Part shown: piece after piece, positions 3,001-6,076 of the stretch
How positions within the stretch are numbered: position 1 is the stretch's first letter
Layout of the letters: each line of letters starts with the position of its first letter
IMG/VR virus record: IMGVR_UViG_3300007640_005613
Coordinates: 1-31,580 of that record
DNA: 31,580 nt
Direction: 5' to 3' (one strand)
DNA from: a virus
Lineage: Duplodnaviria; Caudoviricetes
The notes under the pieces: generated by a model
Database searches by the model: none
The model's input: the letters and a program-made list of their open reading frames with translations, nothing else
What the model was told of the DNA's origin: nothing
Program-made: the position numbers and the translations under genes

Positions 3001-3504
3001 ATGATAGACTTGTACCCATCAACGCTTAATGATAGAGAACGTAAGTTGCTACATTACCTGTATACGCATCCTATGGCAGGTATTAAGGAGATTACTGATG
3101 CTACTGATACGACGTTACGTGTGCATACAGGGGCGGTTCATAAGGTGTTAAAAGGACAACCACTTAAAACACGTAAGCGTATTAACATATTTACTCGGGC
3201 AGGCTACATTACGTTGCCGAAACTTGAGGATTTAGACGTGAACGTGTTAAATCCTGTACACCAGTTGATGTATAATGAGTTACAACAACAACCTGACATA
3301 AGCTATGCGGAGCTTGCGGACACATTAGGGTATGCTAAGGGGTATATGCGCGTAGAAATGTCGAAAATGTACGGTGTGTTTGGGTATCGTGTTGACCAGA
3401 CTAAAGGCTCACTTTTGGGATTACTTGGCTTTTATAGCCAGTATGGGTGGTTTGATAAAGACAGACTAGCTGAAGATGCGGAGATGGTGTATACTAAGGA
3501 ATAA
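3001..3504 (+). CDS. Tandem-HTH DNA-binding protein (paralog of 4338..4802)
   Basis: Two HTH-like units: LNDRERKLL...GIKEITDA and PDISYAELADTLGYAKGYMRVEMSKMY. Confidence 0.7.
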   Translation: MIDLYPSTLNDRERKLLHYLYTHPMAGIKEITDATDTTLRVHTGAVHKVLKGQPLKTRKRINIFTRAGYITLPKLEDLDVNVLNPVHQLMYNELQQQPDISYAELADTLGYAKGYMRVEMSKMYGVFGYRVDQTKGSLLGLLGFYSQYGWFDKDRLAEDAEMVYTKE

Positions 3505-4337: not shown

Positions 4338-4802
4338 ATGCTATACAACAATGTGAAAGACCACTATCGCGACATCTTGAAAGACGTGTATCTTAATCCG
4401 TATGATTCAGTCCCTGACATTGCCAAGCGTAATTACACGTCAGAGTCAACAGTGAACATGGTATTTACAAGAGCATGGGGTTCAGCGTCTCGTAAAGATT
4501 GGTTACTTTCGTCTGGGTATATAACTATTCCTACTGAAGTTCTACAATATGAGTATAAACCTGTCACGAATATCATGCGGGCGTTTCAAGCGTCTCCTTT
4601 CGCAGGTATTGAGGAGATTTCTGCGTTTACAGGTTACTCTGTTGCGACAATTGGGCAAGCGGTGCTTAAAACCTACCGCTACTTCAATTTTAACAACAGT
4701 GCAGTACGATGCCCCCGACAGTTCCAACGCATCGCATTTTACGAGTTTTTGGGGTGGTTTGGTCGTAATCGTTTAGCTAAAGATGCTATGGAGCAATACT
4801 AA
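4338..4802 (+). CDS. Tandem-HTH DNA-binding protein (paralog of 3001..3504)
   Basis: Shares GYIT(L/I)P and FY...GWF...RLA.DA with 3001..3504. HTH-like PFAGIEEISAFTGYSVATIGQAVLKTY. Confidence 0.7.
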   Translation: MLYNNVKDHYRDILKDVYLNPYDSVPDIAKRNYTSESTVNMVFTRAWGSASRKDWLLSSGYITIPTEVLQYEYKPVTNIMRAFQASPFAGIEEISAFTGYSVATIGQAVLKTYRYFNFNNSAVRCPRQFQRIAFYEFLGWFGRNRLAKDAMEQY

Positions 4803-4882
4803 TGGGTGACAAACCTATCTCAAAGTGGCATTTTAACGTGTTTAAACAGTTTGGTGCTGTAGTGTTAGACACAATAACCTAA
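4802..4882 (+). CDS. Possible 26-aa peptide MGDKPISKWHFNVFKQFGAVVLDTIT
   Basis: TAATG stop/start overlap with the upstream gene and GGAG at 4790-4793. Ends just before the next promoter. Confidence 0.35.
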   Translation: MGDKPISKWHFNVFKQFGAVVLDTIT

Positions 4883-4889
4883 TTTTCAC

Positions 4890-4930
4890 TTGCCATTTGC
4901 TGTACTATTTGATATACTGATAGTACAGCA
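4890..4930 (+). promoter_or_regulatory. Sigma70 promoter overlapped by an 11-bp perfect inverted repeat (operator-like)
   Basis: TTGCCA (4890-4895), 17 nt, TG-a-TATACT (4913-4918). TGCTGTACTAT (4898-4908) and ATAGTACAGCA (4920-4930) bracket the -10 box. Confidence 0.7.
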
Positions 4931-4936
4931 CATTAT

Positions 4937-5039
4937 GGGGTTGCCACACTGTGAGGTCTGCCGTCGGTGGCTGTTAACGCTCTGGGGAGGGATAGTTAAC
5001 GAAACTGGCGAAACACGGGAGCGTTGCCCGTCAACTCCA
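4937..5039 (+). ncRNA. tRNA-like RNA with alanine identity (resembles the tmRNA tRNA-like domain; no canonical anticodon arm)
   Basis: Acceptor stem GGGGTTG (4937-4943)/CAACTCC (5032-5038) with G3:U70 and discriminator A5039. T-arm ACGGG-AGCGTTG-CCCGT (5015-5031). Internal stems GCC/GGC and GTTAAC/GTTAAC. Promoter directly upstream. Confidence 0.65.
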
Positions 5040-5112
5040 CTGGGGATACACTACTAACCTCGTATCGCCCTCAACAAAAAGAGTAGACTAATATCCCCTA
5101 AATATATTTATT

Positions 5113-5151
5113 GACACTTAAATTTATTTTTAAGTGTCTTTATTATTTTTT
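5113..5151 (+). terminator. Rho-independent terminator candidate
   Basis: GACACTTAAA (5113-5122)/TTTAAGTGTC (5129-5138) 10-bp stem followed by a T-rich run. Confidence 0.55.
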
Positions 5152-5176: not shown

Positions 5177-6076
5177 ATGAGTAGACATATTGTCAGTTTT
5201 AGTACAGGTGTGCCTAGTGCAGTAACAGCATATTTAGTAACGCAACAACACCCTGATGCTATTGTTGTGTTTGCGGACACTCTCTGGGAAGATGATGATA
5301 ATTACCGTTTCTACAAAGACGTAGAGACTTTGTTAGGTAAACCTATTGTCTCGTTAACAGGTGGTCAAAATCCACTAGAAATAGCTAATAAAGAAGGGTA
5401 TTCTTACATACCTAACAGTAGAACGGCTACTTGTACACTAAAAGCTAAAATTAAGGTGTTACGTGAGTTTATGCAAGAAGGTGACACTTTATATTTAGGT
5501 ATGGATTTAAGTGACAAGAAAAAAGGTAGATTAGCCTCTCCTATTAAAAACTGGGGTAAAGTAGGCGTTAACATTCGGTATCCAATTATTGAGCAGAACA
5601 TACAAGATGTACAAGCATTTGCTAAAAGTTTAGGGCTTAATCCTCCTCGCATGTATAGCATGGGGTACAAACACGCTAACTGTGGTGGTCGCTGTGTTAA
5701 ACAGGGACGTGGAGATTGGATACGCACACTTGAAAACTTTCCTGAACGTTACCTCGAGGTTGAGACTTGGGAGTGGGAAAAAATTACACTTCAAGCAGTA
5801 CGAGTATTTTTCCAAATGTACATTGCTATGTTGCACCCGATGAATATTGCTTGGGTCAAAATTCCTAGCATGTACTCTTTGGTTAAACGGCAGATTAACA
5901 AGCAAAAAGTTATTGCGCCTTTGCGCTATCTACGTTTAGAATATTTAGCGGGTGAAATAAAATCTAACCGATTGCTAGATATGATGGATGAGTTAGATGG
6001 TTACGGTTGTACTGTAGAATGTGGTTCAGGGAATGAATTGGAGTTGAGCTTGGCTTTCGACGATATAACTAATTAG
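5177..6076 (+). CDS. PAPS-reductase-like / adenine-nucleotide alpha-hydrolase (PP-loop) family protein
   Basis: N-terminal VSFSTGVPSA PP-loop, FADTLWED, CTLKAK, and Cys motifs HANCGGRCVK and CTVECG. SD AGGGG. Confidence 0.8.
   Translation: MSRHIVSFSTGVPSAVTAYLVTQQHPDAIVVFADTLWEDDDNYRFYKDVETLLGKPIVSLTGGQNPLEIANKEGYSYIPNSRTATCTLKAKIKVLREFMQEGDTLYLGMDLSDKKKGRLASPIKNWGKVGVNIRYPIIEQNIQDVQAFAKSLGLNPPRMYSMGYKHANCGGRCVKQGRGDWIRTLENFPERYLEVETWEWEKITLQAVRVFFQMYIAMLHPMNIAWVKIPSMYSLVKRQINKQKVIAPLRYLRLEYLAGEIKSNRLLDMMDELDGYGCTVECGSGNELELSLAFDDITN

Follow-up and report, generated by a model that had tools for sequence, protein, structure and literature searches.

A putative divergent TLD-only tmRNA-like RNA gene in a phage genome and a set of phage RNAs of the same anatomy

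The window analyzed here, meaning the whole 31,580-nt stretch of DNA, contains at positions 4937–5039 a putative RNA gene that has the ends of a tmRNA and a single helix in place of the message. Judged from its predicted fold and its model alignment, the TLD-only (tRNA-like domain only) anatomy of this element is real; the element is an outlier—long (103 nt), alone, and with the rarer G55 type of T-loop. We put the chances at about even (roughly 0.5) that it is a tag-less, TLD-only derivative of tmRNA that would be charged by the host and would act as a competitor of host tmRNA–SmpB. Because the TLD-only kind has already been published from mycobacteriophage DS6A, the window element is not a new class, and taken alone it represents one outlier of a known kind.

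Phage setting, anatomy, and conservation

The window is a linear virus record of 31.6 kb (72% complete), and this phage is also represented by a longer record (G002; 37.4 kb, 85% complete) with an identical copy of the element. Among the 35 window proteins scanned were terminase, portal, scaffold, head-tail, and tape-measure proteins, together with a C5 methyltransferase, a PAPS-reductase-like protein, a primase-helicase, and ThyX. The element sits in a 374-bp gap between a 154-aa gene with no assigned family (4338–4802) and the PAPS-reductase-like gene (5177–6076). ARAGORN called no tRNA genes, either across the window or at four loci from the two records; a tyrosine integrase was neither found in the longer contig nor named among the window proteins, and no SmpB gene was detected in this phage, the longer contig included. 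Upstream lie two HTH-type genes, at 3001–3504 (Pfam HTH_24) and 4338–4802 (a weak HTH lead), and the first 670 nt of the window are AT-rich and free of ORFs of 50 aa or more, with short repeats and T runs.

A sequence-only reading of the region had described a 7-bp acceptor stem with G3:U70 and discriminator A, a T-arm of 5 bp and 7 nt stacked upon it with A54, C56, and U58, an AAAC connector, and a 3′ end without encoded CCA, all of which were confirmed in the sequence (Table 1). Acceptor and T-stem pairs are intact throughout (12/12), and the trailer after position 5039 begins with CT, hence CCA is not genomic. This architecture is both the minimum-energy and the centroid fold, with pair probabilities of 0.89–1.0 in the acceptor, 0.75–0.88 in the T-stem, and 0.83–0.88 in the basal central helix. 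An mRNA-like domain or tag frame is absent, as are a D-stem and a 5-bp/7-nt anticodon arm. The irregular helix of about 50 nt was recovered at 49 nt, but the GCC/GGC register (G24-C73) proposed for it is 3 kcal/mol worse than the favored one, a single helix over nucleotides 26–74 whose base runs from C26-G74 to U32-A68. A model rebuilt from 41 members (R2, see below) aligns the element in the GCC/GGC register despite the energy cost, and the AG elbow is lost there. The elbow itself, taken previously as GG at nucleotides 19–20, is better read as A18-G19 (4954–4955), because G55 of the T-loop then has a matching A18 in the D-loop. A proline-anticodon-like apical loop of 7 nt (CT-GGG-GA) was considered and set aside: a loop of 4 nt is favored in the predicted fold, and an anticodon arm would have roughly half this length. 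Part of the central helix (4984–4997) resembles the 5′ terminus of G55-type TLD-only RNAs (L066), with agreement at 14 of 15 letters. This likeness, found after the fact, scores 23 against a shuffle mean of 15.8 (12 of 2000 shuffles); the segment pairs only 5/7 with the acceptor 3′ strand and may be what is left of an earlier 5′ end nested in the helix.

Table 1. Features in and around the element, in window coordinates
Feature	Positions	Strand	Basis
Sigma-70-type promoter-like site, extended -10, TTGCCA-17-TG-TATACT	4890..4918	+	10/12 consensus letters plus TG
Possible operator, an inverted repeat spanning promoter spacer and start site	4895..4933	.	14-nt arms, 93% complementary, 11 nt apart
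Predicted 12-nt 5′ leader, which RNase P would remove	4925..4936	+	Promoter spacing; tmRNA maturation
Whole element, putative tag-less tmRNA-like RNA gene, 103 nt	4937..5039	+	Predicted fold, R2 alignment
Acceptor 5′ strand, G3 of the G3:U70 alanine mark	4937..4943	+	7/7 pairs with 5032-5038
D region, stemless, 18 nt	4944..4961	+	All pair probabilities <=0.33
Irregular helix, 49 nt, replacing tmRNA helix 2 and message	4962..5010	+	Fold
Connector AAAC, 4 nt	5011..5014	+	Family connector is 3 nt
T-arm, 5 bp, G55-type loop AGCGTTG	5015..5031	+	AGC-type loops in tmRNAs and TLD-only RNAs
Acceptor 3′ strand with U70, discriminator A5039	5032..5039	+	Sequence; CCA not encoded
Second hairpin in 3′ trailer	5042..5098	+	z -2.64 for 5040-5105
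Intrinsic terminator-like hairpin	5113..5138	+	10 pairs plus T-rich tail; z -7.6 for 5105-5150

Folding energy by itself does not set the element apart: the whole 103-mer is no more stable than its own shuffles (z = -0.25), where 12 family members range from -0.4 to -3.3, and segment 4962–5010, chosen after the fact, reaches z = -3.45 when excised and folded alone. A loose acceptor and T-arm descriptor found 0.33 matches per shuffled window, falling to 0.07 when C56 was required, while a strict one asking for tmRNA-type GG..CC and GGG/CCC letters, a level defined post hoc, matched none of 300 shuffles; the real window gives exactly one match at every level.

The sigma70 promoter and leader of about 12 nt that had been claimed were borne out as a candidate site that is the best of the region, ends 18 nt 5′ of the element, and predicts a start near 4925. 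Four promoter-like sites occur in the 601 bp searched against 1.6 in shuffles, the consensus used being sigma-70-type. Elsewhere in the window the inverted repeat over the promoter has no more copies than expected by chance. The trailer hairpin has no Rfam identity; related strains retain it with a single change, at 5092, which lies in the outer pair. A 55-codon frame (4890–5057) begins within the promoter and was set aside.

Conservation, proposed earlier as a check on the element, held in close strains. The phage occurs in marsh or freshwater samples. Its region is present in 24 sequencing runs, of which four were examined, and the contigs derive from mixed populations, such that strain identity across contigs is unassured. 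No changes were listed within 4937–5039 in runs X14, X15, and X23. In X15, 27 changes were listed across 940 nt of the flanking genes, and 23 of these fall at third codon positions (23/313, 7.3%), against which 0/103 in the element is significant (Fisher p = 0.002); the same comparison with all coding sites is not (p = 0.10), and zero changes across 4890–5091 against all sites gives p = 0.009. Loose ends near 4795–4869 and at 5150 mark places where intergenic DNA on both sides has been replaced in those strains, and we therefore consider the segment from the promoter through RNA and trailer hairpin to the terminator a cassette that moves as a unit. RNA-library contigs cover 4866–5103 and 4602–4775 (X23) and 5497–5664 (X24). 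Because these contigs start 5′ of the promoter and cover parts of both neighbor genes, carry neither end nor strand information, and may be DNA, they do not demonstrate a discrete RNA.

A wider set of phage TLD-only RNAs and the divergence of the window copy

As the sequence-only reading had anticipated, standard finders miss the element: neither ARAGORN nor Rfam reported anything in the window at default thresholds, and ARAGORN with lowered thresholds returned overlapping mitochondrial-type noise only. Relevant Rfam models (RF00023, RF04321/RF01849, RF00005, RF02544, and RF02553) gave no match to the element at E≤10. This absence says little about its kinship, because five of six G55-type controls also lacked an RF00023 match and the sixth fell below threshold. 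Several identities were nevertheless rejected on additional grounds. A standard tmRNA (RF00023; threshold 47 bits) is excluded by the missing mRNA-like domain and tag frame as well as the missing match, and a canonical tRNA (RF00005) by the lack of D-stem and anticodon arm together with the negative ARAGORN and Rfam results. For a permuted tmRNA (RF04321/RF01849), the model finds its controls and not the element, and a downstream GGGGATA pairs 5/7 where the upstream strand pairs 7/7. A bacterial Y RNA (YrlA) was set aside given no RF02553 match and no Ro60 family among the matches of the 35 window proteins scanned in this incomplete genome.

Direct relatives of the window copy proved elusive. 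BLASTN of the element gave no relevant phage match and no plasmid match, and in 185,579 genomes the same 3′ end was found at only five sites, without a tRNA or tmRNA call at any of them. A pattern search of metagenomes yielded two matches, of which one was an identical copy and the other weak and GC-rich; nine capsid-related records yielded the identical copy only (0/8 others), plus two weak matches overlapping ordinary tRNAs; and a primase-helicase query returned the same phage only. Of 79 other phage loci with the PAPS-reductase-like gene, none carried such an RNA at E<0.5, nor did any of five whole records, and we therefore see no link between that gene and the RNA. The pattern, capsid-relative, and neighbor-gene searches recovered identical copies and no diverged homologue, so that the covariation described below for the central helix is that of the family.

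Elements of the same anatomy were, on the other hand, readily found. Patterns taken from the element's ends were run over a viral collection in five scans (at least 40, 29, 41, 2, and 35 loci). ARAGORN called two of the first 40 loci as tRNA-Ala, and most others were elements of 72–103 nt that had tmRNA-type ends but lacked a message. We built a model, R1, from 35 TLD-only sequences, with DS6A included and the window element excluded, and ran it on 70 of 113 loci (near-duplicates and element copies left out) plus 22 later loci. Counting only rows with R1 scores of at least 45 bits, training sequences included and lower rows dropped beforehand, we obtained at least 53 distinct phage TLD-only sequences (54 rows), two of them from cultured phages. 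ARAGORN called 0/54 of these rows; CCA is encoded in 32/54 and absent in 22/54, and a tRNA lies within 1.5 kb in 10. In an unfitted alignment the central helix, which the patterns did not constrain, is 90% paired (31–52% when slid) and shows 101 double changes; family-level covariation of this helix is strong. Two members exceed the RF00023 threshold (72.8 and 64.5 bits). None of 46 records carrying TLD-only RNAs, among them 7 virus records with a completeness of 90% or more, had a detected SmpB, which was found in 10/14 control genomes. Loci L043, L044 (and copies), L046, L050, L208, and L209 were removed from the family as permuted alphaproteobacterial tmRNAs.

Set against the 2025 tmRNA database, reported to hold 97,179 sequences, with nine standard-form CDS-less tmRNAs and 79 phage entries (PMC11915505), these counts suggest that interference of phages with trans-translation may be widespread and absent from annotations. 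The openly accessible literature yielded no description of a broad phage TLD-only family or of the window variant.

Several further observations came from the same loci. The DS6A element was located at JN698994 28478–28557. Streptomyces phage BRock (KX925554, L113:1507–1584, minus strand) carries an unannotated TLD-only RNA within a tRNA array (RF00023, 64.5 bits), making this cultured phage a tractable test system; phages LuckySocke, GiJojo, and Alone3 gave partial matches. A common motif of about 40 nt lies 3′ of the TLD-only RNA at L001, L008, L019, L023, and L039 and may be another small RNA. L229:1498–1853 (minus strand) is a full-length phage tmRNA with an AGC T-loop that ARAGORN missed despite an RF00023 score of 113 bits. 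Phage tRNA-like genes uncalled by ARAGORN and combining AGC or GGC T-loops with D-loop AG occur at L058, L061, L210, L212, L214, L226, L234, and L235, several with shrunken D-arms and a GCAC-containing anticodon loop, and three tandem alanine-identity tRNA-like genes at L011:3001–3246 (minus strand) received no ARAGORN calls.

The family provides a frame for reading the window copy's unusual elbow. AGC-type T-loops occur both in tmRNAs (L229, L208, L209) and in TLD-only RNAs (L048, L051, L216, L218, L227). Among 32 representatives sharing <80% identity, A18 accompanies G55 in 8/10 cases (exceptions L065 and L068) and is found in 0/22 without G55 (p = 4e-6, uncorrected for relatedness). In a later scan, AG was present in the D region of every AGC-loop element that had a partner for its acceptor strand (15/15), a crude count over related rows of which two were already in the first set and six also had GG there. 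The window element, with G55, A18-G19, then 6 nt, then the helix-opening C, shows the modal family spacing in the energy-favored register, where its elbow match is that of A18 with G55, the other type being G18 with U55; the match is lost in R2's register.

Other positions have drifted. The SmpB-side signature U-C-G-A at the 3′ end of the D-loop reads CTGC in the window, only G being kept. C22 and C25, which we take to be the equivalents of tmRNA U17 and A20 (tmRNA-17 and tmRNA-20), are C in 0/32 representatives at each position. The window connector has 4 nt, where 32/32 representatives have 3 nt, and the D region is 18 nt long against 9–15. Still aligned in the energy-favored register are G24 (4960) with tmRNA G19 and a connector A with A334, both described as SmpB contacts (PMC8363625). 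Other variants lacking GA are the L001 group, L022, L029, and L218. R1 matches only 4984–5039 (27.6 bits), and R2 aligns the full 4937–5039 (29.9 bits, E = 1.5e-6). These E values of about 1e-5 to 1e-6 go with scores that equal those of true tRNA-Ala controls (about 23–28 and 27–35 bits, respectively) and lie far below the 43–85 bits of core members, and part of the match arises by construction because the search patterns came from the window element. The earlier description of a mini-tmRNA without message thus stands as to anatomy, a T-arm type shared with tmRNAs and TLD-only RNAs, and full-length alignment by R2, while the D-loop and connector signature partly failed and the scores are no higher than those of tRNA-Ala. 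As the TLD-only anatomy is present and the SmpB-side signature is not, we file the element as a divergent variant rather than a plain member.

Proposed function and alternatives

In the reading we favor, the phage RNA gene is likely transcribed from its own promoter, after which host RNase P and 3′ trimming—the route by which tmRNA ends are produced according to PMC3968760—would mature it and the host would add CCA. The G3:U70 pair and A73 suggest alanylation by host AlaRS, for which G3:U70 with discriminator A is described as the signal (PMC3968760), and the elbow would be closed by A18.G55 and G19.C56 contacts. Once charged, the RNA would probably draw SmpB, EF-Tu, and stalled ribosomes away from host tmRNA, such that stalled (phage) proteins would be spared tagging for destruction during infection. 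No SmpB gene was detected in the phage, and the partner would thus be supplied by the host; SmpB binding is the least certain step, and the drift in D-loop and connector may make it weaker in the window copy. The sequence published from DS6A is described as little more than a TLD, and strong inhibition of tmRNA is reported for a molecule like it, whether or not this can be charged, perhaps through titration of SmpB (PMC4131195; repeated in PMC11915505).

The drift on the SmpB side also opens a tentative alternative, to which we give clearly less credence: a mimic of tRNA derived from the tmRNA end that does without SmpB, likely carries alanine, and is recognized by EF-Tu or tRNA-sensing proteins. 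Such an RNA, its long helix filling the space of SmpB, would act as an anticodon-free decoy for tRNA-targeting defenses or as an alanine donor. It would explain why acceptor and T-arm are intact where SmpB-side positions deviate, is compatible with the lack of change in close strains, and has parallels in the other variants that lose GA; the G19 and A334 equivalents and the elbow AG are, however, kept in family spacing, and no candidate partner for alanine transfer was identified, the RNA being missing (E<0.5) from the 79 other loci with the PAPS-reductase-like gene. Its more specific components fare worse. We think it unlikely that the element belongs to a branch that kept alanine identity and a re-paired A18.G55 elbow while giving up the SmpB joint; it is doubtful that the 49-nt helix replaces a protein or an anticodon arm to yield an RNA-only, anticodon-less mimic; and the odds are similarly long that this RNA would engage EF-Tu, stalled ribosomes, or tRNA-sensing defenses alone. 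The same deviations, with the low model scores, the internal match to a G55-type 5′ end, and the lack of a homologue in eight other capsid-related records, might instead reflect a TLD-only gene in decay that no longer functions and that a local duplication has possibly rebuilt. We judge this improbable in view of the complete acceptor and T-stem pairing, the presence of promoter and terminator, and an element without listed change in strains whose third positions have diverged by 7%.

If the RNA does work with host SmpB, it might assist rather than inhibit, adding one alanine and freeing stalled ribosomes with the protein left unmarked, a role proposed for the mitochondrial CDS-less tmRNA. Tag-free rescue without a stop codon needs a second release route, which weighs against this reading, and we rank it below those above. 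Its anatomy is that of the CDS-less organellar tmRNAs, for which help with incomplete mRNAs has been suggested (PMC11915505); on the other side, the one phage-type RNA reported as tested inhibited tmRNA (PMC4131195, PMC11915505). Least probable of all, and very improbable in our estimate, is that the element arose as a chance fold, as a piece of a host ssrA left at an attachment site, or as the acceptor part of a tmRNA gene in permuted order. The unremarkable whole-molecule z, the frequency of the loose descriptor in shuffles, and the permuted tmRNAs among our pattern matches would fit such origins, but the strict descriptor is absent from shuffles, the five genomic places sharing the 3′ end are not called as tRNA or tmRNA, no tyrosine integrase was seen in the longer contig or named in the window, and the permuted-tmRNA model recovers its controls without matching the element.

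Comparison with known systems

Full-length (RF00023) and permuted tmRNAs (RF04321, RF01849) have the same type of acceptor and T-arm as the window element, which lacks their pseudoknots, resume codon, and tag. The full-length phage tmRNA L229 combines its AGC loop with AG-GTTCGA-C and shares the opening AGGT with the window element, which reads AG-GTCTGC-C. CDS-less organellar tmRNAs (the one-piece form of Jakoba mitochondria, and those of Mallomonadaceae plastids; RF02544) are described as a tRNA-like domain without a tag frame (PMC11915505). They differ in being the sole tmRNA of their compartment, with a dedicated SmpB, and the window element has no RF02544 match. Closer in detail are the phage RNAs L048, L218, L227, L216, and L051, which share the A54-G55-C56 loop and the D-loop AG; L048 (99 nt) and L227 (97 nt) are also long, and L218 likewise lacks the A of GA. 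These five nonetheless differ in having TTCG, a 3-nt connector, and scores of 46–73 bits, and their central helices are not evidently like that of the window.

The published counterpart is the DS6A "TLD only" tmRNA (tmRNA Website tmID 11587). Like the window element, it is phage-borne and in one piece of standard order, with a G3:U70 acceptor, discriminator A, a stacked T-arm, a stemless D region, and one helix replacing the message without a tag frame. DS6A has 80 nt, a GG elbow, a U55 T-loop, an intact TCGA, a 3-nt connector, and an R1 score of 68 bits (as a training member), whereas the window copy has 103 nt, an AG elbow, a G55 loop, GC for GA, a 4-nt connector, and scores of 28–30 bits. 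The window copy can thus be regarded as a natural mutant in which the alanine marks and elbow are intact and the SmpB side has drifted, and its comparison with a canonical member would bear on whether these RNAs need SmpB, the question left by the DS6A report.
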